57,417 bases of DNA from a virus (IMGVR_UViG_3300022897_000003:1-57417); one strand, 5' to 3'; positions 18,767-57,417 are shown, counted from the stretch's first letter. Notes: generated from the letters alone by a model not told the origin. Program-made: numbers and translations.

Positions 18767-19143
18767 AGGCGGCTGCCGCCCTCGGCATCCCCGGCTCGAA
18801 GTTCGAAGGCCGCGAGCCGGTCACGACCACCCGCTACTTCTACGACCGCCGCGGCCGCGTGACCCGGACCGAGTCGGTCAGCGAGCCGGAGTGGACCGAT
18901 GAGGACCGGGCTGAGGTCCTGGCGCTTGCTGAGTACCGGGCGAGCCTCTGCCCGAACGGGTGCGGCCAGCCGCTCAGCGAGTCCACCAGCCATGCCGATG
19001 TCGGCCCTGAGTACGACACCAGACGCACCACCTGCCGGGCCTGCGCCGAGATGCTCGCCGCCCGGCGGGCCGACGACGACGGCGGCAAGGGCGACAGCCG
19101 CGCACGCGTGTGGACGATCATCAAGACGAGGGCGGGTGACTAG
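18718..19143 (+). CDS. -1 frame extension of tail assembly chaperone (gpGT-like)
   Basis: FLARRLASSPDYRHRVEAAAALGIP...EPEWTDEDR...CPNGC...CRAC. Confidence 0.8.
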   Translation, partial: FLARRLASSPDYRHRVEAAAALGIPGSKFEGREPVTTTRYFYDRRGRVTRTESVSEPEWTDEDRAEVLALAEYRASLCPNGCGQPLSESTSHADVGPEYDTRRTTCRACAEMLAARRADDDGGKGDSRARVWTIIKTRAGD

Positions 19144-22100: not shown

Positions 22101-22390
22101 CACGACCACATCGCCATGGCCAACGGGGGAGTGATCAACGAGCCGGTCTACGGCTACGGGGCGTCCGGCCGCTCGTACTCGTTCGGTGAGCGCGGCTCCG
22201 AGACCGTCATCCCGGCACCAGTGGAGTGGACCTGTCGTCACTGGTGTCCACCCTCAATGGGCTCCGCAACGCACTGTCGGCACAGGCCGCCCGGCGCGCT
22301 GGCGTGACGATCGGCGCGGTCAACGTCAACGAGCGCACCGACGTCGACATGCTGGTCAACGCTTTGCAGTTCCAACTCGGGGGTCTGTGA
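19143..22390 (+). CDS. tape measure protein with C-terminal metallopeptidase-like domain; apparent 1-bp frameshift near 22212
   Basis: TP901-type core (FEKSMS...YSATQAA...DNLAGDL); SYHGFGRAVD...HDH; the -1 frame after 22213 ends at TGA 22390 coupled to the next ATG. Confidence 0.9.
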
Positions 22391-26217: not shown

Positions 26218-26355
26218 ATGACGCAGCCTGACGACGCGGTCGCCCACGACGAGGGCGACCTGGAGCAGTACGCCGGCGAGCCGGTCGACGACGGCTGGGC
26301 CGAACCGACCGCTGCCGGACCGGCCGCGGATCCCGAGCCCGAGGACGTGGACTGA
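26218..26355 (+). CDS. small acidic protein coupled to endolysin
   Basis: 45 aa MTQPDDAVAHDEGDLEQY...; AAGGAG RBS; TGATG overlap. Confidence 0.55.
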   Translation: MTQPDDAVAHDEGDLEQYAGEPVDDGWAEPTAAGPAADPEPEDVD

Positions 26356-27206
26356 TGGCCAGCTGGATCCTCGTCCCGTGCCTGGTCAGCCTGCGCAACG
26401 AGTTCAACAAGCTGGCCCCCGGCCGGGACAAGGCGAGCGACGGCTCGATCGGCGACACCGCCCACCAGCAGGAGTCGAGCGACCACAACCCTGACGAGAC
26501 CGGCCGCACGCCGTACGAGGACGCGGACAAGGTCAACGAGGTCCATGCGATCGACGTCGACGACGACCTGCGCAAGGCCGGCTGGACGATGGACCGCTGC
26601 CTGCAGATCATCATCACCCGGCACCGCACCGGCAAGGACGACCGGCTGCAGAACGTCATCTACAACCGGCGGATCTGGTCCCGTTCGTGGGGCTGGACCG
26701 CCCGGGAGTACACCGGCGCCAGCGCGCACACCGAGCACGCCCACTTCTCTGCCCGCTACACCACCGCCCAGGAGTCCGACACCCGATCGTGGGGGCTCCT
26801 GGACTCGACCAAGGAGGACGACGTGAGCGAACAGGACGTCACCAACGCACTGGAGAAGTTCTTCGCCCGCGGGAAGCAGGCGGACGGCACCATCACCAGC
26901 CGGATCGGCCGCGACGCCCTCGACCAGGGCATCCCCGACGCCCTGACCGGCAAGAAGAGCAACGCCTGGCTGGCGCTCCAGCACATCGGCGGCGCGGTCA
27001 GCAAGCTGTCTGCCCTGGTCGCGGCCATGGCCGAGGACGAGGTCACTCAGGCCGACATCGACGCGCTGAAGGCCGCAGTCGAGAACGTCGACGAGCAGGT
27101 GATCGATCAGCTCAAGGGCTCCACACCCGAGGAGACGGCAGCCTTGCTGAAGGCCGCACTGGGCGATCAGGCCGCCGAGGTCGGCCGCATCCTGGCCGGC
27201 GCATGA
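26355..27206 (+). CDS. endolysin (Zn-dependent M15-like peptidase)
   Basis: DGSIGDTAH...SDHNPD...VHAIDVD...HTEHAHFS. Confidence 0.85.
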   Translation: MASWILVPCLVSLRNEFNKLAPGRDKASDGSIGDTAHQQESSDHNPDETGRTPYEDADKVNEVHAIDVDDDLRKAGWTMDRCLQIIITRHRTGKDDRLQNVIYNRRIWSRSWGWTAREYTGASAHTEHAHFSARYTTAQESDTRSWGLLDSTKEDDVSEQDVTNALEKFFARGKQADGTITSRIGRDALDQGIPDALTGKKSNAWLALQHIGGAVSKLSALVAAMAEDEVTQADIDALKAAVENVDEQVIDQLKGSTPEETAALLKAALGDQAAEVGRILAGA

Positions 27207-29123: not shown

Positions 29124-29492
29124 ATGCGCGTCTACGGCAAAGCCATCGTCGCCGTCCTGGTCGCCGCGGTCGTCGTGGCGTACCAGGCCCTGTCCGGCGA
29201 CAACCACATCGACCCCGAGGAGTGGGTCAGCATCGCCATCGCCGGGGCCACCGCCGTCGGCGTCTACCTCATCCCGCTCGCACCCCAGGCGAAGTGGGCC
29301 AAGTCCGCCCTCGCGGCGGTGCTCGCCATTCTGCAGGTGCTGACGACCACGATCCTCGGCGGAATCGGCACCGACGAGATCCTGCTGATGCTCATCACCT
29401 CCGCCGGCGCCGTCGGCATCTACGCCGCCCCCGCGATCTCCCAGACCCCGCTCGGCACCCCGGTAGTCGTCACGGCTGGCTCCGACGCGTAG
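29124..29492 (+). CDS. holin-like membrane protein
   Basis: KAIVAVL...EEWVSIAIA...GVY motif, internally duplicated TM pairs; AAGGAG RBS. Confidence 0.7.
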   Translation: MRVYGKAIVAVLVAAVVVAYQALSGDNHIDPEEWVSIAIAGATAVGVYLIPLAPQAKWAKSALAAVLAILQVLTTTILGGIGTDEILLMLITSAGAVGIYAAPAISQTPLGTPVVVTAGSDA

Positions 29493-29564: not shown

Positions 29565-29610
29565 AAGAGCGCCCCGTCCTTGCCTTTGCGGCAGGGGCGG
29601 GGCGCTCTTT
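29565..29610. terminator. bidirectional terminator between late and transfer operons
   Basis: AAGAGCGCCCCGTCCTTGCC-TTTGC-GGCAGGGGCGGGGCGCTCTTT. Confidence 0.85.
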
Positions 29611-29617
29611 CTCGTTG

Positions 29618-29782
29618 TCAGCCTTTGCGCTTGGCCCGCGCCGCCGCATGCTCTGCGTCGAGGCTCTTCTTCTGCGCCCGGTACTGGCACTCGCTCGGCT
29701 GATGACCCCGGTGGAACCGGGCAAGATCCTCGGCGTCCCTACGCAGACGCCGCTCGAACAGAGCGTCACTCAGCTTCCCCAT
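29618..29782 (-). CDS. small basic protein (54 aa)
   Basis: Manual translation MGKLSDALFERRLRRDAE...RAKRKG. Confidence 0.55.
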   Translation of the reverse strand: MGKLSDALFERRLRRDAEDLARFHRGHQPSECQYRAQKKSLDAEHAAARAKRKG

Positions 29783-29784
29783 GA

Positions 29785-29976
29785 TCAGTGATGACGCCTA
29801 CGGTCGAGCTCCGAACGGCGCACCGTGCTCTTCACCGGCTTGCCGTCACGGCGCACATGCTTGGACAGCTCCGCCAGATCCTTGGCGGCCTCGTACGTCT
29901 CCCGCCGCCCACCGGTCTTCGCCATGTGCCACCTGCCGGGACCGATCTTCACCTCGACGGTGTGTTCCCTCGCCAT
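29785..29976 (-). CDS. small basic protein
   Basis: MAREHTVEVKIG...; GAGGAG RBS. Confidence 0.6.
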   Translation of the reverse strand: MAREHTVEVKIGPGRWHMAKTGGRRETYEAAKDLAELSKHVRRDGKPVKSTVRRSELDRRRHH

Positions 29977-29989
29977 CTCCAACTCCTCT

Positions 29990-30235
29990 TCAGCCGACCA
30001 GCTTGTTCTTCGCGATCCCCAACTTCGTCCACACCCGCCGGCCCAGCCGGACCCGCGAGCCCGCGCCCTTGCACCACCAGCACGCCCGGGAGAACCGGCC
30101 CTTGCGATGCCGGCCCATCCCTTTGCAGCACCAGCAGTCGACCAGCGGCCGCCACCAACACTGAAACGCCGTCCAGCCCAGCCACAGAAGTCCGGCCGTC
30201 ACGATCACGGCGATCACCTTCTCGATCTCTTTCAC
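29990..30235 (-). CDS. membrane-anchored protein with DnaJ-type CxxCxGxG zinc repeats
   Basis: TM helix, CWCCKGMG and CWWCKGAG, RVRLGRR; genes of this type commonly follow traB in actinomycete elements. Confidence 0.7.
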   Translation of the reverse strand: MKEIEKVIAVIVTAGLLWLGWTAFQCWWRPLVDCWCCKGMGRHRKGRFSRACWWCKGAGSRVRLGRRVWTKLGIAKNKLVG

Positions 30236-30259
30236 CCTCCTCTCGATCTTCGGATGTGC

Positions 30260-30429
30260 GGTCGCGGCATCAGTCGCGCGCCGACCCTGGGTCGCGTTGC
30301 CGCGACCGGTACCGCGACCTATCTGACCTGCACAGACATCGAAGGTCGCGGTCGCGGCACCCCCGTTTTGAAACCTCGTTTTCAGTCCCAGAAGGGGTCT
30401 GGAGGCAGGCAGAACGAGCTACCGCGACC
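30260..30429. repeat. clt-like locus: cluster of GGTCGCGG octamers (candidate TraB recognition sequences)
   Basis: Perfect GGTCGCGG at 30260, 30344, 30350 and CCGCGACC at 30300, 30312, 30422; near matches at 30272, 30290; immediately downstream of traB. Confidence 0.7.
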
Positions 30430-32479
30430 CGGCCAGCGCGCGTTGCTGCATCACTGCCTCGACGTCGTTGCGACGGCACCCCTTGAGGCCGACGCCCTCG
30501 ACCTTGACGTCCACACTGGGCACCTTCTCCGCTCGCACGAGGGCGCTGATCGCCTCCGCGGTGAGCCCCCGATACAGGGCCGGCTGCTCGGCGGCGAGGA
30601 TCTCCGCCAGTTGCTGCCACTGCAGGCCCGGCCGGTTCGTGTGCGCGAACACCCGGATAACGTCGGCCAGCACGTCCCGCTCGGGGTCGGTGCGCAGGTC
30701 CACCGCGGGCATGTCCCCGCGCATCCCCAGCGCCCGGGCGACGATCGCCTCCGCCGTCGGGTTGTCGATGTAGTTGGCCCGCACCGGCTGGTCCCGGCCG
30801 GCCAGGTAGCCCCAGCCCGCCCACGGGTTGTCGTCATCCGCCGGCGGCACGAACGTCGTCGGCCGGGCGCCCCGGCTGTAAGCGCCGGTACCCAGGATCA
30901 GGTCCGTCTCGACGTGCGAGGGCACGGCCAGGCAGAGCCGGTTGTGGACGTTAGAGCTGATGCCCTTCGGCACCGACTCCTTGTCAATGCGCTGGGTGGA
31001 CAGGATCAGGTGGATGCCCAGCGACCGGGACCGCTTGATGATGCTGGTCAGCAGCCGTTTCGCTTCCTTGCCGAGGTCAGGGTCGGTGATCAGTTCCTGG
31101 ATCTCGTCGAGGATCGCGAGCAGCGGGAACAGCGACGGGTCAGCCTGCGCGATCGCCCGGTTCAGCTTGTTCTGGCTGTTCAAACCCTTGACCGCCCACT
31201 TGCGGATCGCCGGGCCCCGCCGGTCGCACTCCTTGTCGAGCCACCGCAGGATCGCCATCGTCTGCTGCTTGGCCCGGTCGTCCGCGCCGGAGGCATACAT
31301 CTCCGGTAGGCACAGCGGTTCCATCGCGTCGAAGTCGCCGGAACCCTTGAGCTCCGAGATAACGAACCGCACCAGCGGGTCCAGCGCGGCTGCCAGGCCG
31401 ACGTTGCGCGCGGCCAGAGTCTTGCCGGATCCGACCATGCCGGCGAACATGCTGTTGCGCTCGGCCAGGCGCCAGGACAGGGCTCGCATACGCACGTCGT
31501 CGCCCCAAGGAAGCGGGCCGAAATAGTCGAGTTCTCCGCAGGTCAGCAGGGGTGAGACGGGTTGCTTCATCCGGTCCACCGGCCGGTCGGCCACCCACAC
31601 TGCGAGCACGCCAGGGTGAGCGCCGCGGACTGGCTCGGGCCACACCTGCGCGATCGGCAGCTGGAACCCGGCAGCCAGATAATCGCGCTGGTCGATGACG
31701 TTCTTCGCGATGATGCCGGTCGGCAGGGTCACCTCGGCCATGTAGCCAGGGCCGTCGCGATAGATCTCCTTGTTGAACTTGATCTTCTCGGGTTCCTTGA
31801 TCCCGGCACCCGACGCGACCAGCGCGGCCCTGGTCAGCTCGGCCGTGAGCCGCACGAACTTGCTGGCGTTGAACGCCGACTCGAGGATCGGTTTGCCGAC
31901 CGGCCGGCCGATGCGGGCCAGAATCGGCAAAGCGATCGCGAAGGCCAGCCACAGGGCCCACCACGGCGCGACGAACCACAGCAGCAAACCGCTGATCGAC
32001 GCCGCAAGCCAGCCGGCGAACAGCCCCATGAACCGGGCCTTGCGCGCCGCGGCCACCTTGTCAGCGATGAGCGGGCCGCGATCGACATCCTTAGCGGTCG
32101 CGGCCGCGGACATCAACTGAGACAGCTCAGGGTGGGTCGCCCACTTGAGTTGCCGGCCGAGAAGCTTCAGCAGCCCCCACGGGCCGTACAGAGCCATCTT
32201 GCCCAGGTAGACCGGGGATCGGGACAGCTCCCACAAGATGCCGTGAGAAGCCATTGCCAGCACCAGCGTCAGCAGCGAGTGCCGACCGGCCTTACTGCGC
32301 AGGCTGGCAGGCACGATGGGGCGCCGCTCGTCGGCCCGCGAGACAACGTCCGCAAAGGTGATCGAACGGGTCGGGGGGTCCACCGACCGATTCACGGAAT
32401 CAACGGTGACGACGACCGTTTCTGCATCGTCGGCCTCGGCCGGGCCTACCTCGTAGGCCTCGGGCAGCGTGTCTGCCAT
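30419..32479 (-). CDS. traB: TraB-like FtsK/SpoIIIE conjugative DNA translocase
   Basis: N-terminal TM segments, Walker A AGMVGSGKT, Walker B LAILDEIQEL, ILSTQR, C-terminal wHTH-like domain. Confidence 0.88.
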   Translation of the reverse strand: MADTLPEAYEVGPAEADDAETVVVTVDSVNRSVDPPTRSITFADVVSRADERRPIVPASLRSKAGRHSLLTLVLAMASHGILWELSRSPVYLGKMALYGPWGLLKLLGRQLKWATHPELSQLMSAAATAKDVDRGPLIADKVAAARKARFMGLFAGWLAASISGLLLWFVAPWWALWLAFAIALPILARIGRPVGKPILESAFNASKFVRLTAELTRAALVASGAGIKEPEKIKFNKEIYRDGPGYMAEVTLPTGIIAKNVIDQRDYLAAGFQLPIAQVWPEPVRGAHPGVLAVWVADRPVDRMKQPVSPLLTCGELDYFGPLPWGDDVRMRALSWRLAERNSMFAGMVGSGKTLAARNVGLAAALDPLVRFVISELKGSGDFDAMEPLCLPEMYASGADDRAKQQTMAILRWLDKECDRRGPAIRKWAVKGLNSQNKLNRAIAQADPSLFPLLAILDEIQELITDPDLGKEAKRLLTSIIKRSRSLGIHLILSTQRIDKESVPKGISSNVHNRLCLAVPSHVETDLILGTGAYSRGARPTTFVPPADDDNPWAGWGYLAGRDQPVRANYIDNPTAEAIVARALGMRGDMPAVDLRTDPERDVLADVIRVFAHTNRPGLQWQQLAEILAAEQPALYRGLTAEAISALVRAEKVPSVDVKVEGVGLKGCRRNDVEAVMQQRALAGSR

Positions 32480-32519
32480 GCTGTGACCTGCCTCTTTCTT
32501 CCTCGTGGAGCTAGGGGTG

Positions 32520-32561
32520 GCGGGGCGCGACCTGCTTGTCTAGGGCCGGGTCGCGCCCCGC
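32520..32561. promoter_or_regulatory. inverted repeat upstream of traB containing the CGCGACC/GGTCGCG core
   Basis: GCGGGGCGCGACC-N16-GGTCGCGCCCCGC. Confidence 0.6.
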
Positions 32562-32565
32562 GCAG

Positions 32566-32652
32566 TTACCAGTCGGTGCGCTCGCCGCGCCGCTGGGCCA
32601 TCCGGCGTAAGGTCTTCGCGCCTTCGCTAGTGGTGTTCTTGTCGCGCGCCAT
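32566..32652 (-). CDS. micro-protein, 28 aa
   Basis: MARDKNTTSEGAKTLRRMAQRRGERTDW; TGATG-coupled. Confidence 0.6.
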   Translation of the reverse strand: MARDKNTTSEGAKTLRRMAQRRGERTDW

Positions 32653-32828
32653 CAGCGCTCCCCGCCCCGCAGCTTGCGGGCCTCCCGGCGCACCGAGGCG
32701 GCTTCGCTCTCCGCCGCCCGGCGCCCGTCACCGGATCCCAGGGAGCGCTCGTAAGCGGCCCGCTTGTCCAGCTCAGCCGCGTACCGTTCCCTCGCCGCCG
32801 CCAAACGCAGACTCATCGAGTCCGTCAT
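32652..32828 (-). CDS. micro-protein, 58 aa
   Basis: MTDSMSLRLAAARERY...KLRGGER; TGATG at both ends. Confidence 0.7.
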   Translation of the reverse strand: MTDSMSLRLAAARERYAAELDKRAAYERSLGSGDGRRAAESEAASVRREARKLRGGER

Positions 32829-33025
32829 CAGCGCTTCCCGCCCTTCGGCTTCTTCGCCTCGTTGATGCGCCGGCGGATGTCCGCGGCAACCTCCGCGTCG
32901 GTCATGTGGTTGTAGCCGCGGCCGAGCGCACGCCAGCGCTCTTTCTCGAAGTCGTCGTCCTTGTTCGCCACGTCCTGGTTCTCCTGTCCGTCCTGGTCAG
33001 AATCGTCGTCGGGGATGTCCGTCAT
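32828..33025 (-). CDS. micro-protein, 65 aa, acidic N-terminus
   Basis: MTDIPDDDSDQDG...KPKGGKR; TGATG at both ends. Confidence 0.7.
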   Translation of the reverse strand: MTDIPDDDSDQDGQENQDVANKDDDFEKERWRALGRGYNHMTDAEVAADIRRRINEAKKPKGGKR

Positions 33026-33165
33026 CAGCCCCACAGCTTCCGGGCCAGGCGCTTGCCGCGCGTGTTGTTCATGGTCACCGGCCAGTCGACCTGCTTGACC
33101 CGCCGCTGCTTCCCGCCGCCTTCCTTGCCCGTCTCCAGGTCGATCGCCCGCACCGTCTTCGCCAT
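33025..33165 (-). CDS. micro-protein, 46 aa
   Basis: MAKTVRAIDLETGKEG...ARKLWG; TGATG at both ends. Confidence 0.7.
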   Translation of the reverse strand: MAKTVRAIDLETGKEGGGKQRRVKQVDWPVTMNNTRGKRLARKLWG

Positions 33166-33293
33166 CACCACTCACCCTTCGCGAGTTTCCGAACCGCCTC
33201 GATACGCTTCTGCCGCGCGGCTGCGGCCTGCTCAGCCTTGGTCTCCGGTTTCTCGGCCGGCTTCCTGCCGTCGGCCTTGTCGCCCTTCGCCAT
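33165..33293 (-). CDS. micro-protein, 42 aa
   Basis: MAKGDKADGRKPAEKPE...LAKGEW; TGATG at both ends. Confidence 0.7.
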   Translation of the reverse strand: MAKGDKADGRKPAEKPETKAEQAAAARQKRIEAVRKLAKGEW

Positions 33294-33439
33294 CACCGCA
33301 GCCCCTTGATCCGGACCCGGCGCACCGACTCCAGCCGGCCCGCCTTACGCAGCGCCTCGACCTGCTGCTGCGTGGCGCCCGTCATGGCCGAACCGCCCTT
33401 GGCCTGCTTGTACGTCACGACCTTGTTGCTGGTCGCCAT
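33293..33439 (-). CDS. micro-protein, 48 aa
   Basis: MATSNKVVTYKQAKGG...RIKGLR; TGATG at both ends. Confidence 0.7.
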   Translation of the reverse strand: MATSNKVVTYKQAKGGSAMTGATQQQVEALRKAGRLESVRRVRIKGLR

Positions 33440-33582
33440 CAGCGCTTCCCACCCTTCTGCTGGCTCTTCGCGTAGTCCCGGACCTCCTGGGCGTATTTCT
33501 CGGCCTTCGCCTTCGAGTCGCCCATCCGCAACGAGGCACGCCTCTTCTCCCGCGCGACCTGCTCGGTCACCGACTTCGCCAT
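33439..33582 (-). CDS. micro-protein, 47 aa
   Basis: MAKSVTEQVAREKRR...QQKGGKR; TGATG at both ends. Confidence 0.7.
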   Translation of the reverse strand: MAKSVTEQVAREKRRASLRMGDSKAKAEKYAQEVRDYAKSQQKGGKR

Positions 33583-33788
33583 CAGTTCTTCCCTCCCCTG
33601 CGGGTCACCGTGGTTGTCTCGGTGACCTCCGTCGTGCGCCGCTCGACAGTCCGGTTGAACCTCATCGGCACCGGCTTGCCGCCGTTCTTCGCCGCCAGCT
33701 CGCGCTGCAACCGCAACGCGTCCGCCGGCGTCGGGTTCTTCGGCACCTTCGCCAGCGCCGCGTCGATCTCACGCCTCGAAATCGCCAC
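33582..33788 (-). CDS. micro-protein, 68 aa
   Basis: VAISRREIDAALAKV...RRGGKN; GGGAG RBS. Confidence 0.7.
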   Translation of the reverse strand: MAISRREIDAALAKVPKNPTPADALRLQRELAAKNGGKPVPMRFNRTVERRTTEVTETTTVTRRGGKN

Positions 33789-33811
33789 TGCCGTTCTCCC
33801 GTTCTTCCTGC

Positions 33812-33916
33812 TCAGGCGGCCTTCGCCCGAGCCTTCAGCCGTTCCTGGGCTTCCTGGTGTTCCTTGCGCCGCGCCGCCTCACGATGCTCCAGACGACGCT
33901 GCAACGACGGGCTCAC
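33812..33916 (-). CDS. micro-protein, 34 aa
   Basis: VSPSLQRRLEHREAARRKEH...KAA; GTGA-coupled. Confidence 0.55.
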   Translation of the reverse strand: MSPSLQRRLEHREAARRKEHQEAQERLKARAKAA

Positions 33917-34050
33917 ACCCGCCGCCGGCCACGGCCCGCGGTCTGCGCCGCACGTTCCTGCTGCTTGACCTTCTGCTGCCGGGCCGCCCGGTCCGAGGTG
34001 CGCCGGTGGTTGGCGTTCGGGTCCTCGCCGGACCAGTTGCTCTGTGCCAT
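33913..34050 (-). CDS. micro-protein, 45 aa
   Basis: MAQSNWSGEDPNANH...GRRRV; AGGAG RBS. Confidence 0.6.
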   Translation of the reverse strand: MAQSNWSGEDPNANHRRTSDRAARQQKVKQQERAAQTAGRGRRRV

Positions 34051-34108
34051 GCTCGGTATCGCTCCTGTTCGATTCCGGGCCGCCCGCACAGCGGCCCACT
34101 CGGTGGAT

Positions 34109-34139
34109 GCGGTGGCCGGGCTCCACACCCGGCCACCGC
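34109..34139. terminator. hairpin within the micro-gene array
   Basis: GCGGTGGCCGGG-CTCCACA-CCCGGCCACCGC. Confidence 0.5.
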
Positions 34140-34152
34140 GCTGCTCAGCGGG

Positions 34153-34338
34153 TCAGCGATTGGTGACGCGAACCCAGTCCGAGCCGTGCTTCGGGTTACG
34201 CCGGGCGTCCTGCTGCATCTGCTGGCGCAGCTTGCTGACCTGCCCAGCGCTGGCGGACTTCGCCTTACGCACGTCGGGGTCCCGCAGGCTGTGGCTGCTA
34301 CCGCTGACCTGCTCGACCCGGAACTGCTTCTTCGCCAT
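34153..34338 (-). CDS. micro-protein, 61 aa
   Basis: MAKKQFRVEQV...; preceded by AAGGAGATCTGAG. Confidence 0.7.
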   Translation of the reverse strand: MAKKQFRVEQVSGSSHSLRDPDVRKAKSASAGQVSKLRQQMQQDARRNPKHGSDWVRVTNR

Positions 34339-34368
34339 CTCAGATCTCCTTCTCGTCGTTGTTGCTGG

Positions 34369-34521
34369 TCAGTGGCGCTTGTGAGCGGACGGCTGGCTCT
34401 TCTTCCAGGCCTCGCCCGCCTCAGCGACCTTCTTCGCCTGCTTCTTCCACGCCTGCTCGTCGTGCCGAAGCTTCTGCAACTTCGCCAGCTCCTGCCGCAC
34501 CGCGTCTTCCTTGCTCGCCAT
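34369..34521 (-). CDS. micro-protein, 50 aa
   Basis: MASKEDAVRQELAKL...; preceded by the identical AAGGAGATCTGAG. Confidence 0.7.
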   Translation of the reverse strand: MASKEDAVRQELAKLQKLRHDEQAWKKQAKKVAEAGEAWKKSQPSAHKRH

Positions 34522-34522
34522 C

Positions 34523-35038
34523 TCAGATCTCCTTAGCCATCGGACCGGCCACGAGCAGGCCGAACGCCTGACGGGCCACCACCGGGACCTCTTCCCGGAC
34601 GTCAATGCAATGCAGGTGCTCCAGCGCCACCCACCGGGCGCCGGACGCCTCATCGGCGGGCACCGTCACCGGCAGGCTGCTGTCAGCCGTACCGACGAAC
34701 AACAGGTCGATGTGGGTGTGCGCGGGCTCCGCGGGCTTACCCGGCCGCACCGGTTTCGCCGGCGCCGGGATCTCCGCGGTCACCCACGGGCTCGGGTGCC
34801 ACCGTTGCCCCGGCACATGCACCAGCTGCTGGCGCTGGATCACCGCAATCAGGCCGGTCTCCTCCCGCACCTCCCGCAGCGCCGCCTCCGCCGGTGTCTC
34901 ACCCGCATCGACGTGTCCGCCGGGGAACACCCACTTGCCGGTGGCGTTGTGGTGCACCAGCAGCACCTGCGGGCCGTCGAAGACGACCATCGACGCCGTC
35001 AGGTGACGGCTCTCGGGAGTCACCTCGGTGCGGCTCAT
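34523..35038 (-). CDS. Nudix hydrolase
   Basis: Nudix box GGHVDAGETPAEAALREVREETGL. Confidence 0.92.
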   Translation of the reverse strand: MSRTEVTPESRHLTASMVVFDGPQVLLVHHNATGKWVFPGGHVDAGETPAEAALREVREETGLIAVIQRQQLVHVPGQRWHPSPWVTAEIPAPAKPVRPGKPAEPAHTHIDLLFVGTADSSLPVTVPADEASGARWVALEHLHCIDVREEVPVVARQAFGLLVAGPMAKEI

Positions 35039-35223
35039 GAGCGGGGCTTCTTCGTGTAGGTCCCGTCCTTGCCGGCAACAGCCTTCGCCGAGTTGATCCC
35101 GCTCACCGTGAGTCGGGTGCCCTTGGAGGTCGTGACCTCGTAGGTCGCGTCGTCATCGGTCTTGGCGTAGTCGCGGGCGATCTTCTTCAACTCCCGCTTG
35201 GTGTATCCCTCGCCGTACGGCAC
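35035..35223 (-). CDS. small basic protein (62 aa)
   Basis: VPYGEGYTKRELKK...; ATGA overlap with Nudix gene. Confidence 0.65.
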   Translation of the reverse strand: MPYGEGYTKRELKKIARDYAKTDDDATYEVTTSKGTRLTVSGINSAKAVAGKDGTYTKKPRS

Positions 35224-35224
35224 C

Positions 35225-36316
35225 TCAGTTCCCCTTCTCGTTGTCGCCGGCCCGGACCAGATCCGGGACGTTTCCGTTGGTCTTGGCGCTTCGCAGAGCC
35301 CGGCCGACCGTGGCCGGGGACGTAGCGAGCAACCGGGCGATCTGGCCCTGGGAGAGACCGGGCGCAGCCGATTTGATGAAGCGGGCCGCCTCGTGCTTCT
35401 CCTGCGTCGTCCGGGCGTCCTCACTCACCGGCTGAGCAGGGATGAAGGGGGGCTGGGGGTGCGTCACCTTCACCGTCCGCAGGGAGCGCCGGTGAAGCAC
35501 CCGACGGCCCTTGCGTGAAGCGGCCACACGGACCGGAACGCCCGCGGGCGAAGCGGCCTCGTGCTGCTCCTCCTGCTTCGCGTCGAACCACAGAGCCCGG
35601 TCGACCCGTTCACGAACCGCGTCGATCACGCCGTCGTCAGCGGTGAGGCTCAGCCGAGCCAGTCGGTCCGCGCGCCGTTCGGTGAAGCGCTCCGACCCGT
35701 GCCGGCGCTTGAACTCCAGGCGCGTCATCTGCTGGATCAGCCGTTCACGGTGCACGGTCTCCACGTCACGCTCGCCCGGCTCGATCGCACCGATCAACAA
35801 CAGGAACCGGCGCGGCGTCCACCGCCACGACGACACCCCCTGGCGCCGCTTCGCCCCCTCCCCGAGGAGGCCGTCCCACCACGCGAGGGTCACCAGCAGC
35901 GGGATGAGCAGCCGCAGCACCGCCTCGGCGAACGAGTGCGCCACGCCGGCGGCCACCACGGCCATCGCCGACGCGACGATCCACGCCGTCCGGCCCGACC
36001 GGCCCGGGTGGCCGTACTCGCGCATCGCCCGCTTGGCCCGGATCATCGCCAGCACCAGCAGCGACTCCAGGACGAAGAACATCAGCAGGCGCAGGCTCGT
36101 CGGGAATCCGGCCCGGCCGGTCAGCACCCACACTGCCTCGGAGGACCAGCCCAGACCGACCAGCATCGTCAGGTTCGACAGCGGCCCATCCGGACGCTCG
36201 CTCCGGGCGAGCTTCCGCATCCGGCGGGCCACCCAGCCCAGCAGCAGCACGCTGACGACCAGGGCACCGATGAGGTACCCGGGGTGGACGAGCAAGGAGG
36301 CCGGGTTGAAAGTCAT
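35225..36316 (-). CDS. Spd-like (spread) multi-pass membrane protein with C-terminal HTH
   Basis: 4-5 TM helices, basic middle region, LSQGQIARLLATSPATVGRAL; architecture typical of SpdB2/DUF2637-type proteins. Confidence 0.65.
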   Translation of the reverse strand: MTFNPASLLVHPGYLIGALVVSVLLLGWVARRMRKLARSERPDGPLSNLTMLVGLGWSSEAVWVLTGRAGFPTSLRLLMFFVLESLLVLAMIRAKRAMREYGHPGRSGRTAWIVASAMAVVAAGVAHSFAEAVLRLLIPLLVTLAWWDGLLGEGAKRRQGVSSWRWTPRRFLLLIGAIEPGERDVETVHRERLIQQMTRLEFKRRHGSERFTERRADRLARLSLTADDGVIDAVRERVDRALWFDAKQEEQHEAASPAGVPVRVAASRKGRRVLHRRSLRTVKVTHPQPPFIPAQPVSEDARTTQEKHEAARFIKSAAPGLSQGQIARLLATSPATVGRALRSAKTNGNVPDLVRAGDNEKGN

Positions 36317-36648
36317 CGGGACACCTCGGCCGGCAACGGCTCGGCGACGTCAGCCCCGTGATGTGTGGTCCGCACATCAGCCTCGGCGAACCGGGACCGG
36401 CCCAGCTGATACAGCAGCACGGCCACACCGCCGGGCGCGGCCAAGCCGACCAGCAGCAGCTGCGCGGACAGCTCGGCACCCGGCAGGAACACGCCCGGGG
36501 TCAGGAACAGCGCCGAACCGGCCACCGCCAGGCAGGTCGAGCCGATGATGCGGCGCCGGCGGTTGCGGTCGGTCAGGACCTGCTGCTGGTACTCGCGCTG
36601 CGCGGCCGCCAGGGCCTGCGCGCGCATCATGGGCGGCATCTGCTTCAT
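36313..36648 (-). CDS. two-TM membrane protein (Spd-like)
   Basis: MKQMPP...; two hydrophobic helices; coupled. Confidence 0.6.
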   Translation of the reverse strand: MKQMPPMMRAQALAAAQREYQQQVLTDRNRRRRIIGSTCLAVAGSALFLTPGVFLPGAELSAQLLLVGLAAPGGVAVLLYQLGRSRFAEADVRTTHHGADVAEPLPAEVSR

Positions 36649-36803
36649 GACCACGCCACCTCGATCCGGATCGACGGGACGCGCACGGCCGGCAGCCGGC
36701 GGCGCGGGGGACGGCTCGACGGCACCGACGCCGCGGCGATGAGCGCCTGCGCGCCGACCACCACGAACGGGCCGAGCAGGATGAGAAGCCAGGTCACGAT
36801 CAC
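36645..36803 (-). CDS. small single-TM protein (52 aa)
   Basis: VIVTWLLILLGPFVVVGAQALIAAASV...; GTGA and ATGA overlaps. Confidence 0.6.
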   Translation of the reverse strand: MIVTWLLILLGPFVVVGAQALIAAASVPSSRPPRRRLPAVRVPSIRIEVAWS

Positions 36804-36985
36804 CGGGCACCCCCGGTCATCTCGTCGATGTGCTCCACGGCCTCGAAGTAGTTGGTGAGGATCTGGTGCGCCTCATTCAGCTTCTCGACCGCGGCCATCT
36901 CCCGGTCGGTCACCACGGTGCGGATGTCCGCCACCGCCGTCTGCGCGGCCGCGTCCCGCAGCCAGGCGGTGATCTGCGCGCTCAT
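36800..36985 (-). CDS. hypothetical protein
   Basis: MSAQITAWLRD...; ATGA coupling. Confidence 0.6.
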   Translation of the reverse strand: MSAQITAWLRDAAAQTAVADIRTVVTDREMAAVEKLNEAHQILTNYFEAVEHIDEMTGGAR

Positions 36986-37284
36986 CGGGTCGCCGCCGGC
37001 AGGCTGGTCGTGATGCTGTCGAACTCGGCCCAGGTCACGTGCCACCACTCGACGTCGCAGCTGTCGGCGCCGTCCTCACCCAGCTCGAGGTGCAGCACGA
37101 ACGCGCAATCGCCGTCGCAGTCACCCTCGTCCTCCGGTGTGTCCTCGCACTGCGCGACCGTGATCAAGGTCTGCCAGTACGGCGGGCGGTCGTCGTTCGC
37201 CACGTTGATGCGGTCGCCGGCCTGCGCAACCCTCTTCTCGAACGGGATGGGGCGGGTGTAGAGGGTCTCGGTCAGCGTCTCCAC
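36982..37284 (-). CDS. acidic hypothetical protein, first gene of the transfer operon
   Basis: AAGGAGG RBS before GTG 37284. Confidence 0.65.
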   Translation of the reverse strand: METLTETLYTRPIPFEKRVAQAGDRINVANDDRPPYWQTLITVAQCEDTPEDEGDCDGDCAFVLHLELGEDGADSCDVEWWHVTWAEFDSITTSLPAATR

Positions 37285-37318
37285 GCGAGCCTCCTTGGTT
37301 GGCGGGACCGTGCGTCCC

Positions 37319-37409
37319 GTGTATGGACACAGTAGCTCCGCGTGTATGGACACGCAAGGCCGTTGTGTATGGACACAGTGCCAACTAGGATGGCGGCATG
37401 TATGGACAC
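37319..37409. promoter_or_regulatory. four operator repeats GTGTATGGACAC overlapping the leftward promoter
   Basis: Copies at 37319, 37342, 37365, 37398 (1 mismatch); minus-strand TTGCGT(37357-52)-N17-TACTGT(37334-29). Confidence 0.85.
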
Positions 37410-37619
37410 TCCGATAAGATCGCCCGCGTGCCGAACCCCGAGAACTTCACGCCTATCCGGTCTATCCGGATCGCTGCCGCCACGTGGGACACAGCGAAGG
37501 CGCGGGCGCGTGAGCAGGGGAAATCCATGAGCGAGCTCGTCCGCGAATTCCTCGACTGGTGGCTGCGGGTGCCTGGCGCGAAGTTGCCGAAACGACCACC
37601 GCCACGGAGCGAGAAGTAG
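37398..37619 (+). CDS. ribbon-helix-helix repressor (Kor-like; start 37398 or 37428)
   Basis: TPIRSIRI...WDTAKARAREQGKSMSELVREFL; divergent from the transfer operon. Confidence 0.8.
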   Translation: MYGHSDKIARVPNPENFTPIRSIRIAAATWDTAKARAREQGKSMSELVREFLDWWLRVPGAKLPKRPPPRSEK

Positions 37620-37624
37620 TTCGG

Positions 37625-37942
37625 TCATCCCGCCAGCCGCCAGGCTCGGATCGCTGCGAAAGCAGCCGTCTGCAGCAGGGCGGCTATCTGCATGGCCTGC
37701 GCCGGCGACATCGGCGCCGACGCCGCGCCTTCCAGTCGAATCGACGGCACCTCGCCAGGACGGTCAACCTGCTCGAGCGAGACGAACAGGTCCCTGATTT
37801 CGCCCGCCGACGACACCTTGACGATCTCGTCGAGGCTGGTGTGAACTACGCCCTCAGTCGAGGGCAGATGGTCCCCCGAGCACCACGCTGGGCACCCCGC
37901 GGCCGTCGAGGACTTTGAGGTCGCAGGCCAGGTTCGTTCCAT
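37625..37942 (-). CDS. hypothetical protein (CPAWC..H family)
   Basis: GCPAWCSGDH...H...MSPAQAMQIAALL. Confidence 0.6.
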   Translation of the reverse strand: MERTWPATSKSSTAAGCPAWCSGDHLPSTEGVVHTSLDEIVKVSSAGEIRDLFVSLEQVDRPGEVPSIRLEGAASAPMSPAQAMQIAALLQTAAFAAIRAWRLAG

Positions 37943-37984
37943 GGGCTTACGATCCGGCCCGAATGCCCCCGGCCGCGGCGACGT

Positions 37985-38030
37985 TGTCGGCGACAAAGGC
38001 ACGACAACCTAGGCGACAAACAGGCGACAC
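37985..38030. promoter_or_regulatory. helically phased CGACA operator repeats
   Basis: CGACA at 37991, 38002, 38014, 38025 plus inverted TGTCG at 37985, between divergent genes. Confidence 0.65.
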
Positions 38031-38048
38031 AAAGGTACCGTGATCTCC

Positions 38049-38780
38049 ATGAACACGGCCCTTCGAGCTGCACGAACGTCGATGCGGATGAGCCAGGACG
38101 AGCTGGCTGCCGCCATGCAGGCCGCCGCCCGGCGTGCCGGTGACTCCCTTGCTGTCAGCAAGCGCACCATCCAGCGCTGGGAAGCCGATGGCAGCAAGAT
38201 GCCCCGTGCCGTCTATGCGCGCGCCCTGGAGGCCGTCACCGGTCTGCCGATCGAGTCGCTGGGTTTCCCGGCCGGTGCCGACGCCATGGTCGTGGACGAC
38301 GGCCGGGGCGGTCACGATCTGGAAGTGCGCACGCCGGCGCTAGGCCCGGGTGAAGCGCGTAAGGCTCAGGGCAACTTCGGCGGTATCTGGCTCAGCAGGT
38401 ACGAGTACTTCTCCAGCGGTCGCAGTGGCATGTTCGCCAGCCAGCACTATGTCGTCCTGCTCCAGCACGGCGATCGGCTGACCGTCCGCAGCCTGCCCGG
38501 CTCGGCCGACTCATCCGTCGGCATGGACCTCACAGCCGACGGCAACATCGTCACCGGCACCTGGGTCGAGGAGACAGCAGCCAACGGCTACTACCGGGGC
38601 GCGCGATATCACGGCGCCATCCAAATGCTGGCCGAGCCCACAGGCCGCAGAGTCAGCGGCAAGTGGGTGGGTTTCGGCAAAGACTTCGAGGTCAACACCG
38701 GCCCCTGGTCGCTGATCTTCATGGACGCGTCGACCAGCAAGGCAACTCTGGCCGCCTACGACCGGCGGCCCAACGACTAA
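38049..38780 (+). CDS. XRE-family regulator with C-terminal beta-barrel-like domain
   Basis: LRAARTSMRMSQDELA...KRTIQRWE; C-terminal GIWLSRYEY...GTW...YHGAIQM...GKWVGF. Confidence 0.85.
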   Translation: MNTALRAARTSMRMSQDELAAAMQAAARRAGDSLAVSKRTIQRWEADGSKMPRAVYARALEAVTGLPIESLGFPAGADAMVVDDGRGGHDLEVRTPALGPGEARKAQGNFGGIWLSRYEYFSSGRSGMFASQHYVVLLQHGDRLTVRSLPGSADSSVGMDLTADGNIVTGTWVEETAANGYYRGARYHGAIQMLAEPTGRRVSGKWVGFGKDFEVNTGPWSLIFMDASTSKATLAAYDRRPND

Positions 38781-39976: not shown

Positions 39977-40918
39977 TCAGAGGTCGCCCATCACGTTGAC
40001 CCGGTCGTAGGCCCGCCGTGCCCTGGCCGCCCGGGCCGAGGCGCCGTAGTGGCGTAGCATTTGCGGGGACTCCCAGCCGTTGAGCTCCATCAGGTCACCC
40101 TCAGCGCCGCCTGCGTCCAGCCAGTTGTGGCTGAAGGTGTGCCGGAACAGGTGCGGGTGGATGTCGAGACCGAGCCGCTCGCCGCGCCGCTCGATGATCT
40201 GCCGGATCCCGGACGGGGTCATCGGCACCCGCCGCCTCGTGCCCAGCCATAGAACGTCCAGCTCTGCTGCGGCATGGCTAGCGCGGATGCGCAGGTAGCG
40301 ATCCAGGGCCAAGGCGCACTTGTGGTCGAACTTCAGCTTGCGGGTCTTGTCGCCTTTGCCGGTCACCACTACGGTGCGGTCCTTGACGTCGACGTCGGCG
40401 AGGCGGATCTTCGTGACCTCCGACAACCGGCCGCCGGTGCATGCGAACAGCCGGAGCAGAGCGGCGTCGCGGCGTGATTCGAAATCGCGGCCGGCCTCAG
40501 CAGACTTGATGAGCCGGCGCATGTCGTCCAGCTCGATCACCGGGGGCGGCTTGCTACCGATCTTCGGTGGTGGCGGCGGCTTGAAACGGGCGTAGGGGTT
40601 GGGCAGGTCCTCCTCCTCGGAGAACCACTTGAAGAATGCCTGCAGGCATCGGCCGATGTTGTTGCGGTAGGACTGGGCGTAGCCGATCTCGTGCATGTGC
40701 AGGAAGAACAGGCGCAGCTGGTCGCGGTCGACCTGGTCCCAGCGCTGCGCCTGCTTCTCGCGGGTGAGCCAGCCGGCGAACCACCGGACGGCGTCGCCGT
40801 ACATCTCACGTGTCCGTTCGGAGCGTTCGGCGACGTGCAGGACCAGGTCGAACGACTCGATGAACGAGGCCAGCGCCGGCGGCGCCGGCGGGACTTCTCC
40901 CCTGTGACTGGCCATCAT
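39977..40918 (-). CDS. int: tyrosine integrase (short, no arm-binding domain)
   Basis: TGGRLSE, GKGDKTR, HPHLFRHTF, GW..PQMLRHY; adjacent attP. Confidence 0.93.
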   Translation of the reverse strand: MMASHRGEVPPAPPALASFIESFDLVLHVAERSERTREMYGDAVRWFAGWLTREKQAQRWDQVDRDQLRLFFLHMHEIGYAQSYRNNIGRCLQAFFKWFSEEEDLPNPYARFKPPPPPKIGSKPPPVIELDDMRRLIKSAEAGRDFESRRDAALLRLFACTGGRLSEVTKIRLADVDVKDRTVVVTGKGDKTRKLKFDHKCALALDRYLRIRASHAAAELDVLWLGTRRRVPMTPSGIRQIIERRGERLGLDIHPHLFRHTFSHNWLDAGGAEGDLMELNGWESPQMLRHYGASARAARARRAYDRVNVMGDL

Positions 40919-41020
40919 GCCCCGATCAGTAAGCGAGTCCTGCGCGAACGACTAAGCCAATCGCATCAGACCTGATACCGTCAAGGAACAACGATGTTTT
41001 CACTGGTCAGGTACCTTTTG

Positions 41021-41062
41021 TGGGCGCGGTAGGTTTCGAACCTACGACCCCTCGCTTGTAAG
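41021..41062 (-). other. attP core, matching the 3' half of a tRNA-Val(TAC)
   Basis: Reverse complement CTTACAA-GCGAG-GGGTC-GTAGG-TTCGAAA-CCTAC-CGCGCCC-A; 5' half absent. Confidence 0.85.
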
Positions 41063-41152: not shown

Positions 41153-41575
41153 TCAGCCGACCTGCTTGCGGCCGCCGCCCGACTCCTGCTCGGCGCGGAA
41201 GCGCAGAAACTCCAGCCACTCGGCCTTGCGACGCGGATCGACTTTCGGGTCCTCGAGAATGGCGATGGCCTCCTCGGTCGTGGCGTGGAACATGCGGGTG
41301 CCCTCGGCCGGCAGACCCATCTCCTCATCGGTGATGTAGCCGAGCACCACCGGTATCCGGCGCAGGTCCAGGCGCAGGGCGCTGAAGATGGCCCGGGCCG
41401 TCGCGGGATCAGGGGTGCGCGTCTTGCCCTGTTCGTAGCGGTTGATGGTCGGGCGCGACACGCCGGCACGCTCAGCTAGATCGTCCTGGCTCCAGCCACG
41501 GCTTTCCCGCGTTGCCCTGATGAGGTCAGCGAACCGCCGCAGGGGTTCGTCCTCAGGCTGAGCAGTGTCCGACAT
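41153..41575 (-). CDS. immunity repressor (CI-like XRE HTH)
   Basis: IRATRESRGWSQDDLAERAGVSRPTINRYEQGK; divergent from Cro-like gene. Confidence 0.88.
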   Translation of the reverse strand: MSDTAQPEDEPLRRFADLIRATRESRGWSQDDLAERAGVSRPTINRYEQGKTRTPDPATARAIFSALRLDLRRIPVVLGYITDEEMGLPAEGTRMFHATTEEAIAILEDPKVDPRRKAEWLEFLRFRAEQESGGGRKQVG

Positions 41576-49169: not shown

Positions 49170-49774
49170 CCACCAAAAATCCGGTCCGCGTGCGGAACGG
49201 CGACGAGTACCTCAGTCTCCGCACTGCCCGGAAGACCTATCACTGCGAGAGCAATCGAAGTGGCTGCGCCGGAATCATCAAGCCGGGCGACCAGTACGTC
49301 CTAGCCGAGCTTCCGCCGAACAGCGACCTCGGCAACGACCGCTGGTGGCGTATTTCCGTCTGCTCTCCGTGCGGGCACGTCGGTCGGCCCGGCGTCGTCG
49401 AACAACTGTTTCCTGATGAGTTCGTAACCGAGTGGCTGATCTGGTCCAACCACCACAAGACCTGGTGGGGCCCGAACGGAAACAACTACTACAGCAGCAT
49501 CGAACGCGCCGGCCGATACGCGAAGGCCGACACCAGCCGGTGGCTCGGACGGGGCTGTGGCTGCTGCGCCGCACCCGAGGTGATCGTGCCCGCGCCGAGT
49601 GCCGAGCTGATGGCCGAGTCCCGCAGTCTCGCCAATTACGCGCTCTTCGCGCCGAAGACGGCCACCCGCAAGGCCGGTAAGACGAACCGTTGGTTCAAGC
49701 CGAGCAAGCCCACGACTCCTGTCACCTCGGATGTCCGTGTCAAGACCGTCGTGACCACCGGAGGCGTGCTGTGA
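49166..49774 (+). CDS. Cys-rich hypothetical protein
   Basis: ARKTYHC...C...IKPGDQY...CSPC; WLIWSNHH..WW...AGRY. Confidence 0.65.
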   Translation: MTTKNPVRVRNGDEYLSLRTARKTYHCESNRSGCAGIIKPGDQYVLAELPPNSDLGNDRWWRISVCSPCGHVGRPGVVEQLFPDEFVTEWLIWSNHHKTWWGPNGNNYYSSIERAGRYAKADTSRWLGRGCGCCAAPEVIVPAPSAELMAESRSLANYALFAPKTATRKAGKTNRWFKPSKPTTPVTSDVRVKTVVTTGGVL

Positions 49775-57213: not shown

Positions 57214-57417
57214 GTGACCCAGATCGTCGACCAGCCGGCGCCCACGCCTAATGAGCGCCCGTCAATCCAGTCTCTGGTCCGTCAGGACCTCGTAGAGCGC
57301 GAGCAGGTAGGCATTCAGCGCTACGGAACCGCCCTACAGGCGCACAACGGCCGCGACGCGCTCGTCGACGCCTACCAGGAAGCGCTCGACCTCGCCTGCT
57401 ACGTCCGGCCGGCCATC
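57214..57417 (+). CDS. 5' part of the junction-spanning MazG-like gene (continues at 145-465)
   Basis: AAGGAG RBS, GTG 57214, in frame with position 1. Confidence 0.7.
   Translation, partial: MTQIVDQPAPTPNERPSIQSLVRQDLVEREQVGIQRYGTALQAHNGRDALVDAYQEALDLACYVRPAI
57274..57417. repeat. Right copy of 144-bp terminal overlap
   Basis: See 1-144. Confidence 0.95.

Follow-up and report, generated by a model that had tools for sequence, protein, structure and literature searches.

The window analysed here is the whole 57,417-nt stretch of the IMG/VR virus record IMGVR_UViG_3300022897_000003. It is a complete temperate siphophage genome, and between its tail/lysis genes and its integrase it carries a leftward block of about 20 genes (29.6–38.0 kb; shown for positions 29,618–37,619) with a TraB-like ATPase gene and a clt-like octamer array. 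We put at roughly one half the probability that this block is an intact double-stranded DNA (dsDNA) transfer module of the type found in integrative and conjugative elements of actinomycetes (AICEs), that it is a regular part of a complete integrative temperate siphophage, and that it acts by the steps proposed below. The identities of the genes, the clade of the ATPase, the repeat array, a layout conserved across phages and AICEs, and closure of the genome are observed directly. An initial annotation, made from the sequence alone, had described a self-contained leftward operon with an FtsK/SpoIIIE ATPase, an octamer cluster, Spd-like membrane proteins, a Nudix hydrolase, a CxxCxGxG protein and its own control elements, beside full head, tail, lysis and int/attP modules. 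The gene map used here comes from gene calling based on third-position G+C (GC3) and from PHROG and Pfam scans; G+C is 63–72% across the window in 1-kb windows.

The TraB-like ATPase, its octamer array and partner genes

The traB-like gene (30419–32479, minus strand) encodes a 686-aa protein with an N-terminal region, two transmembrane (TM) segments at residues 153–191 by hydropathy, an ATPase core at about 296–575 and a C-terminal domain at about 595–686. It matches phrog_1358 with an E-value (E) of 1e-29, in agreement with the first description of a membrane-bound FtsK/SpoIIIE ATPase, and the residues of Walker A (G347..G352 K353) and Walker B (D458 E459) do not vary among 18 homologues. With hhalign, an 18-homologue profile aligns to pSVH1 TraB over 623 columns (probability 99.85%, E 8.9e-31). 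The alignment runs from query residue 15 to 679 against 65–767 of the 772 residues of pSVH1 TraB, from the N-terminus through the C-terminal domain, and therefore the whole architecture is shared. In the ATPase tree (IQ-TREE quick search, 39 rows, 287 columns, Shimodaira-Hasegawa-like approximate likelihood ratio test (SH-aLRT) without bootstraps, several long branches) the window clade of 14 rows has an SH-aLRT of 99 and is nested in a Tra clade with an SH-aLRT of 100. The Tra clade includes pSVH1, pSG5, pFP11, pXL100, the NBC_00562 AICE plasmid (18.4 kb), pPaSha2 and other plasmid and viral-contig Tra proteins, while chromosomal FtsK, together with the Bacillus phage Jabberwock protein, and the EccC domains are outside it. 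The initial annotation had named this phylogeny as a check, and the ATPase groups with TraB and away from FtsK and EccC. AICE-borne and phage-borne copies are interleaved on the tree. These comparisons support the ATPase as a member of the TraB/Tra clade of actinomycete plasmids and AICEs. The FtsK-like translocase of Mischief19, a Streptomyces phage (lytic Woodruffvirus; L061, gene 79), also lies inside the Tra clade, on a branch of 2.17 and with an unsure placement.

Database searches place the nearest deposited relatives on actinomycete elements. In tblastn against 72,556 plasmid records these elements rank at the top; the best matches are a Nonomuraea chromosomal element (37% identity, 92% coverage) and Pseudonocardia alni pPaSha2 (33%, 94% coverage), and pSVH1 (29.9% identity, E 1e-23) and pSG5 are also matched. 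The same search of 50,697 deposited phage genomes gives matches to the ATPase core only, at no more than 28% identity and none in an actinophage; 32 phage records are matched, none over more than 47% of the ATPase. With pSVH1 TraB as the query just five phage matches are obtained, all weak, and megablast of the block against deposited phages gives no match. There are 251 ATPase homologues at E ≤1e-10, and 32 of the 120 TraB homologues listed sit on contigs of 38–62 kb, a range that fits phages and lies well above that of AICEs. A single-protein query of viral contigs returned no related loci, and a query with an alignment of homologues found them; a metagenome scan returned 18 contigs, mostly short.

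The clt-like octamer array (30258–30430) overlaps the 3' end of traB and extends from the last traB codons to 150 nt downstream. Six of the 19 exact window copies of GGTCGCGG/CCGCGACC fall within 30260–30429, in the space from the traB stop to the next gene, in both orientations and accompanied by near-copies, and 0 of 300 control windows within the window reach six copies of any octamer; the cluster annotated next to the ATPase gene is thus real. Our repeat scan takes the commonest octamer from −60 to +250 nt around the traB stop and calls it strong at four or more copies and a control fraction of at most 0.05. In pSVH1, the positive control, it finds five copies of GACCCGGA/CGACCCGG, which we take to be the TraB recognition sequence of that plasmid, 3–107 nt past the traB stop; pSG5 and pFP11 have four octamer copies each. 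The strong-octamer test is passed by 12 of 31 loci of the window subfamily and its sister group, L015 among them with a low-complexity CGCCGCCG repeat. The octamer shifts with TraB divergence. It is CCGCGACC in the window and in L004 (TraB 76% identical) and CCGCTACC in L005 and L011 (65–66%); in more distant relatives it becomes CGCTACCC (L018) and CGGCTATC (L012, 51%), with GCTAGC-type words in the sister group. Such co-variation would look like that of a cognate protein-site pair, and the sequence comparison supports the array as a clt-like site in a place equivalent to the pSVH1 repeat.

A C-terminal winged helix-turn-helix (HTH) that reads 8-bp repeats is a feature of TraB proteins. The winged-HTH-like C-terminus annotated in the window is collinear with the C-terminus of pSVH1 TraB; the winged fold is putative. 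An ESM Atlas model of residues 595–686 (30419–30720) has TM-scores of 0.79–0.80 to the C-termini of other actinobacterial TraB-like proteins and also resembles DUF3631 (TM-score 0.70–0.73). DUF3631 is listed as the RepAM family, an AICE replication initiator, in an excerpt of PMC3218068, and RepAM is reported to bind 8-bp repeats in PMC2440964. Judged from the model, Tra and Rep proteins may share a repeat-reading domain. The ATPase C-terminal domains fall into two sequence types, with the same split as the octamers.

The gene after traB (29990–30235, minus strand) encodes an 81-aa protein that has a TM segment at its N-terminus and two CxxCxGxG motifs of zinc-finger type, as first annotated. 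Of 30 related loci, 24 have a CxxCxGxG open reading frame (ORF) after traB, and none of 3 Streptomyces model plasmids has one; tblastn homologues of the 81-aa protein lie directly after traB in relatives. It is, on this distribution, a conserved partner gene that marks this TraB subfamily. The Nudix hydrolase (34523–35038, minus strand, 171 aa; Pfam NUDIX E 1.4e-21), likewise present as annotated, is 50% identical to the Nudix protein adjoining traB in the AICE-like element L014, and matches are also found in L013, L025 and L057. A parts list for AICEs includes Nudix/Pif with a role for Pif (PMC2440964). The window gene matches the AICE Nudix/Pif gene in position and kind.

Four block proteins (363, 113, 52 and 81 aa) have TM segments. 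This much of the annotated set of Spd-like membrane proteins stands; none of the four matches SpdB2/DUF2637 by Pfam or hhalign. The 363-aa protein (35225–36316, minus strand) has four N-terminal TM segments and a C-terminal HTH. It has 128 homologues, whose listed source names are Actinoplanes bar one (Mangrovihabitans), and a Pfam scan of 19 members of the family at E up to 1 gives weak HTH matches only. An Atlas feature search with this protein leads to DUF2637/SpdB_N clusters in which 10–20% of members have DUF2637, a lead only. By its architecture only, the 363-aa protein is a candidate Spd-like spreading protein.

Genome closure, assembly and host

The window ends overlap (nt 1–144 against 57274–57417, 98.6% identity, 2 mismatches) and one ORF continues across the end junction; the contig thus forms a closed circle, about 57,273 bp long, and is a complete temperate siphophage genome. 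The IMG/VR label of the record, linear and 70% complete, understates this. The late genes run rightward and include terS (3974–4378), terL (5612–7207), portal, protease and scaffold between terL and capsid, major capsid (11476–12540), connectors and major tail between capsid and the tape measure (19143–22307), and distal and minor tail genes to about 26.2 kb. They are followed by a probable lysin relative (26355–27206) and two holin-like membrane proteins (to 28032). The head and tail sets and int/attP are thus as complete as first annotated, and the lysis module consists of probable genes only.

The tyrosine integrase (39977–40918, minus strand, 313 aa; phrog_1 E 3e-37, PF00589 E 9e-25) is the sole integrase found. 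The 43-nt attP core (41020–41062) adjoins it and matches the 3' end of tRNA-Val(TAC) at 100% identity in one Actinoplanes sp. genome (G001) and at 95% in two more genomes of the same family sample, G089 and G070. In metagenome runs X1, X4 and X5 contigs break at exactly 41020 and 41062, and in X1 depth goes up there; such breaks are expected where host attB or integrated copies occur in the same samples. The record is the excised form of an integrative phage, and the tRNA match points to an Actinoplanes-like host (Micromonosporaceae). Direct repeats of at least 15 nt bracketing the block and a second integrase were sought in the window and not found, in line with the initial annotation. Because it has neither att-like repeats nor an integrase of its own, the block is not a nested element.

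Since this is a metagenomic contig with an IMG/VR label of linear and 70% complete, one might suspect that a chimera had been assembled from a phage and an AICE of one metagenome. Five leaf-litter metagenome runs contain the block stretch. In Logan's separate assembly of X1 (possibly the source sample) a 12,588-nt contig spans 28462–41049 with no differences and a flat depth of 13–15, so that the linkage and coverage check suggested for both junctions comes out unbroken. In another sample, X3, a 2,583-nt contig spans 28354–30936 and covers the left junction; among the pieces listed for X3, X4 and X5, none bridges 37.3–38.1 kb. The traB-to-tail-gene junction recurs elsewhere: in further contigs, among isolate genomes and on a closed plasmid. 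Because the X1 and X3 contigs bridge and the junction recurs, a chimera, which the 144-nt end overlap also opposes, is excluded, with a negligible residual probability.

Relatives, mechanism and alternatives

The arrangement recurs. In viral contigs L004–L007, traB has tail or lysis genes no further than 10 kb away, and such genes also lie beside traB in Actinoplanes, Micromonospora and Actinocatenispora genomes (L010–L013, L015), the phage evidence in L013 being holin-like homologues and an unnamed PHROG only. In L004–L006 the traB-octamer-CxxC core is next to tail/lysis genes in the same position as in the window, with TraB 63–76% identical, while gene content upstream of traB varies from one gene in L006 to about 15 in the window. 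Two closed circular plasmids of another host family also combine phage genes with DUF2637-TraB. Pseudonocardia alni pPaSha2 (L001, CP052773.1, 41.9 kb) has capsid, protease, portal, terminase, holin and Bet genes, and its traB is followed by a small CxxCxGxG gene; P. broussonetiae plasmid unnamed3 (L058, NZ_CP053567.1, 27.4 kb) has terminase, prim-pol and integrase genes. Both are deposited as plasmids and typed non-mobilizable, and their TraB proteins are 29–33% identical to that of the window. Judged by gene content, they resemble phage-plasmids, or excised phages, that carry a transfer module; pPaSha is unmentioned in PMC8928166, a paper on that strain. L063, a 90-kb linear plasmid among the weaker plasmid matches, has no annotated phage genes in the 41-kb stretch inspected.

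Other relatives are AICE-like. L014, on a contig of a Dactylosporangium metagenome-assembled genome (about 1.7–20.8 kb), is about 19 kb long, with a host dehydrogenase gene on either side and an integrase at its end. Its gene order is 372-aa protein, Nudix, TraB, CxxC, C5 methylase, Prim-Pol, DpdA (7-deazaguanine DNA modification), helicase. Besides the CxxC gene it has in common with the window TraB (42% identity), Nudix (50%), C5 methylase (43%) and primase/helicase (33%). The last match is to the 951-aa primase/polymerase of the window, which matches PHROG DNA polymerase/primase families (E 1.4e-69) and aligns with the helicase part of L014; a Prim-Pol Pfam match is absent among all window proteins, this one included. 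L057, the NBC_00562 plasmid, is an 18.4-kb excised AICE with GntR, HD, Nudix, XRE, DUF2637, TraB, Prim-Pol and Int, and L002 is a Nonomuraea element with the same TraB type. None of L002, L014 and L057 has virion genes. Because the C5-methylase and the primase/helicase are also common to L014, the non-structural half of the phage as a whole looks AICE-related by sequence. The initial annotation had seen no AICE Rep and had proposed that the transfer module appeared domesticated by the phage; in view of these two genes the former statement was too strong, and the module does not look domesticated on its own.

Compared with the Streptomyces TraB/clt/Spd systems (pSVH1, pSG5, pFP11-type), the window has the same membrane-anchored FtsK-like ATPase, collinear with that of pSVH1 and in the same clade, an 8-bp repeat array right after the traB stop as in pSVH1, and membrane-protein genes upstream in the same operon with a divergent repressor. 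It differs in an identity of about 29%, another octamer, a CxxCxGxG gene absent from the three model plasmids, an Arc-like rather than a GntR regulator, the absence of detectable SpdB2/DUF2637, and residence in a phage. With the AICEs L057 and L014 it has in common the traB-CxxC pair, Nudix and a tyrosine integrase at a tRNA, with TraB 31–42% identical, and of the features by which AICEs are recognized it carries a tRNA-matching attP with integrase, Nudix and an XRE HTH (no GntR). AICEs have no virion and lysis genes, whereas the window is 57.3 kb with terS, terL, portal, protease, scaffold, capsid, tape measure and tail genes, and unlike in AICEs its integrase lies mid-genome in the excised map. 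The window is a phage and not an AICE. The largest model AICE named in a published abstract is SLP1, at 17.3 kb. AICE reviews keep prophages as a separate category, and one survey left out loci with the integrase between rep and tra (PMC3218068, PMC2440964). The machinery itself is, as far as sequence tells, the known TraB/clt system, in a subfamily typical of prim-pol AICEs.

A precedent by description is pZL12/phiZL12, a Streptomyces plasmid-phage that also combines a phage genome with a Streptomyces-type conjugal transfer locus. This element, attributed to Zhong and co-workers in 2010 (J Bacteriol 192:3747), is said to be about 90 kb and to replicate autonomously. Excerpts of two papers present it as a plasmid-phage with phage particle genes (PMC5431353, PMC4487206), and the latter excerpt gives it ParA and ParB partition genes (PMC4487206). 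pZL12 is thus a plasmid with partition genes, whereas the window is integrative, with its attP in tRNA-Val, and no ParA/ParB-type match was found among the window proteins scanned against PHROG and Pfam. pZL12 is not among the tblastn matches listed. Together with the two Pseudonocardia plasmids it is a precedent, so the idea is less new than the initial annotation held. No description of a TraB-bearing integrative phage, or of an AICE with capsid or terminase, was found in open-access papers and bioRxiv. What is new here is an integrative 57-kb Micromonosporaceae siphophage with an AICE-type transfer and replication backbone. On the comparisons above the window appears to belong to a recurring, undescribed group, with deposited "plasmids" like pPaSha2 among its members.

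DNA binding, pumping, regulation and any transfer are predicted from these likenesses. Release of the Arc-like repressor from its four operators would allow expression of the leftward operon. The membrane-anchored hexameric TraB-like ATPase would then use its C-terminal domain to dock on the GGTCGCGG array carried by the excised or replicating phage circle, and would pump unprocessed dsDNA across the hyphal wall into an adjacent hypha or compartment. The CxxCxGxG membrane protein, the 4-TM/HTH protein and the other small membrane proteins would aid passage and spreading, and the Nudix enzyme, like Pif of pSAM2, could limit transfer between cells that already have the element. In the recipient, the genome would integrate at tRNA-Val or go lytic.

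The same genes may serve other ends. Streptomyces TraB and Spd proteins also drive intramycelial spreading, according to an excerpt of PMC4447253, the hosts here are mycelial Micromonosporaceae, and several small membrane proteins and the 4-TM/HTH protein lie near traB. The module may then act within one mycelium only, taking phage DNA across cross-walls or into sporangia or spores with no donor-recipient conjugation. We regard this as possible but doubtful: close TraB relatives are found in the AICE-like L014, L057 and L002, and the AICE lifestyle depends on transfer between mycelia. Somewhat less likely still is a passenger or relic, an AICE piece captured by recombination in the variable lysis-integrase region with no role in phage spread. 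The traB-octamer-CxxC core is intact in L004–L006 (63–76%) and in the Pseudonocardia phage-like plasmids (29–33%), the ATPase motifs are invariant, the octamers co-vary with TraB and there is a dedicated repressor-operator set, all of which speaks for maintenance against such capture; the location of the block in the usual moron/lysogeny region, opposite to the late genes, the widely differing gene content upstream of traB among relatives, and the lack of a neighbouring phrog_9 terminase at most genomic copies of the subfamily speak for capture.

The ATPase could also have another job, such as FtsK-like resolution or segregation of replicating phage DNA, superinfection exclusion or defence, with the octamers regulatory or similar to FtsK-orienting polar sequences (KOPS). 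The FtsK-like genes of lytic actinophages and Bacillus phages have the FtsK/SpoIIIE core in common with it, and Jabberwock groups with chromosomal FtsK. Those of lytic Streptomyces phages are mentioned in passing, with suggested replication roles, in PMC11536984 and PMC13587820. The long branch of the Mischief19 protein inside the Tra clade and weak PADLOC P-loop matches to SspH and mad8 fit the same view. We consider it improbable, since the collinearity with TraB is full length and includes the membrane segment and the C-terminal domain, the nearest relatives are in AICEs and plasmids, PADLOC finds no defence partners, and deposited phages give only the ATPase-core matches described above.

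Several results weigh against a working transfer module. The Pfam FtsK_SpoIIIE match (E 7e-5, 22.8 bits) is just below the 24-bit cut-off, and the NCBIfam equivalog plasmid_TraB (NF041214) scores 22.9 bits against a cut-off of 800; given the latter score the ATPase is no Streptomyces plasmid orthologue, and it represents a separate subfamily of the Tra clade. A PDB profile search with the C-terminal domain gave nothing significant (E ≥0.2), and the winged helix is putative. Under the strict exact-match test, 19 of the 31 related loci have no strong octamer array, and the inverted-repeat layout of the array also fits an ordinary regulator site or attenuator. A GntR regulator of KorA/TraR type was not found in the window. 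The 363-aa protein has no Pfam match to SpdB2/DUF2637, and hhalign gives probabilities of 2.6% and 11.8% over the C-terminal HTH only. In the host-family sample, 95 places in 64 of 151 genomes match the TraB profile at E ≤1e-60, and only one (G123:C8) has a phrog_9 terL within 60 kb on the same contig, in a search that covered no other terminase family and took in many fragmented assemblies. Most chromosomal copies of the subfamily are probably AICE-borne, and the presence of TraB in a phage could be a passenger state. The tape-measure marker PF10145 occurs at 25 places in 21 of the 151 genomes, none beside a TraB match.

If the AICE-type transfer module works, lysogeny could spread through a colony or to neighbour strains without lysis or a receptor, hidden from defences against injected DNA, and the line between virus and conjugative element would be blurred in bacteria that make many antibiotics. 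More tentatively, and at clearly less than even odds, there may be a class of integrative siphophages of mycelial "rare" actinomycetes (Micromonosporaceae, Pseudonocardiaceae) with two routes of exit, by virion or as TraB-pumped naked circular dsDNA, in which AICEs and phages would be the two poles of a single evolving lineage, with the virion module exchanged or lost along it. The transfer and replication genes that they have in common suggest a way in which modules pass between AICEs and temperate phages, and such modules could explain "non-mobilizable" phage-like plasmids, for example pPaSha2. The window offers a concrete system: its 57-kb genome is closed, its attB (tRNA-Val) is named, and both the candidate clt octamer and the repressor-operator set are defined. 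Modules of this kind could also provide DNA transfer for genetic tools in Actinoplanes and Micromonospora, which are hard to transform.

Gene order of the block and neighbouring features

The block is transcribed against the late genes. At its upstream end the Arc/ribbon-helix-helix (RHH)-like repressor gene (37398–37619, plus strand; phrog_6506 E 1.2e-9) is divergent from the operon, and an RHH homologue in L013 is also divergent from its Nudix-traB block. The operator-like array (37319–37412) consists of three exact and one single-mismatch GTGTATGGACAC with a GTGT..ACAC dyad and spacings of 23, 23 and 33 nt. These four are all the matches in the window, and the last one overlaps the ATG of the RHH gene. 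Both the divergent repressor gene and the operators are where the initial annotation had placed them. The promoter scan finds no consensus promoter in the 37.3–37.4 kb gap; the operon's own promoter, also annotated, is inferred.

The first four operon genes (36313–37284, minus strand) encode a 100-aa acidic protein, a 61-aa protein, a 52-aa protein with one TM segment and a 113-aa protein with two; an AAGGAGG ribosome-binding site precedes the GTG start at 37284. The 4-TM/HTH and Nudix genes follow. Downstream of them, 32652–34521 (minus strand) holds about nine small, mostly basic, translationally coupled ORFs of 47–71 aa, with near-identical ribosome-site/start contexts and TGATG stop-start overlaps (repeat families D1 and D2) and with no family match in Pfam, PHROG, NCBIfam or PADLOC. 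The 170-nt gap just upstream of traB contains a perfect 13-nt inverted repeat (32520–32561) with arms GCGGGGCGCGACC / GGTCGCGCCCCGC. Its arms (..GCGCGACC / GGTCGCGC..) are one base off the clt-like octamer, and the repeat may be a TraB or regulator site, or an attenuator. The operon ends, after traB and the CxxCxGxG gene, with two small basic ORFs of 65 and 54 aa (29618–29982, minus strand; GC3 gene call and charge counts), without a family match in Pfam, PHROG or NCBIfam. The annotated terminator is present as a bidirectional terminator-like hairpin (29565–29609) with 20-nt arms that are 90% complementary, a 5-nt loop and A/T runs on either side. A terminator scan matches 29578–29602, and the hairpin sits between a convergent plus-strand gene (29124–29492) and the leftward operon. 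A PADLOC scan of the block is negative for defence systems.

The block probably reaches 38002 and takes in a DUF6907 gene (37625–38002, minus strand; Pfam E 5.8e-9), because DUF6907 genes precede traB in two relatives, L011 and L015. Divergent from it is a gene for an XRE-family HTH regulator (38040–38780, plus strand; HTH_3 E 1.1e-5). Direct repeats GGCGACAAAGGCACGACA / GGCGACAAACAGGCGACA at 37989–38029, between the DUF6907 and XRE genes, may be a second operator.

Beyond the integrase there is an HTH repressor-like gene (41153–41461, minus strand), and the rightward early genes encode two DNA methylases, a WhiB-like protein, a Dda-like helicase, an exonuclease and the 951-aa primase/polymerase. 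In the late region, a gene for a P63C-domain protein (4388–5122, minus strand; phrog_2384 E 8.5e-80) runs leftward between terS and terL, and a 129-aa ORF (13743–14132, minus strand) runs leftward inside the poorly coding 13.4–14.9 kb. A tRNA-Met(CAT) gene (2773–2846) lies upstream of the HNH endonuclease and terS genes. A DUF3307 membrane protein (49771–50220) is encoded among the phage early genes; its 68%-identical homologue in L011 (9259–9708) lies directly upstream of traB, and therefore this gene moves between replication and transfer blocks.

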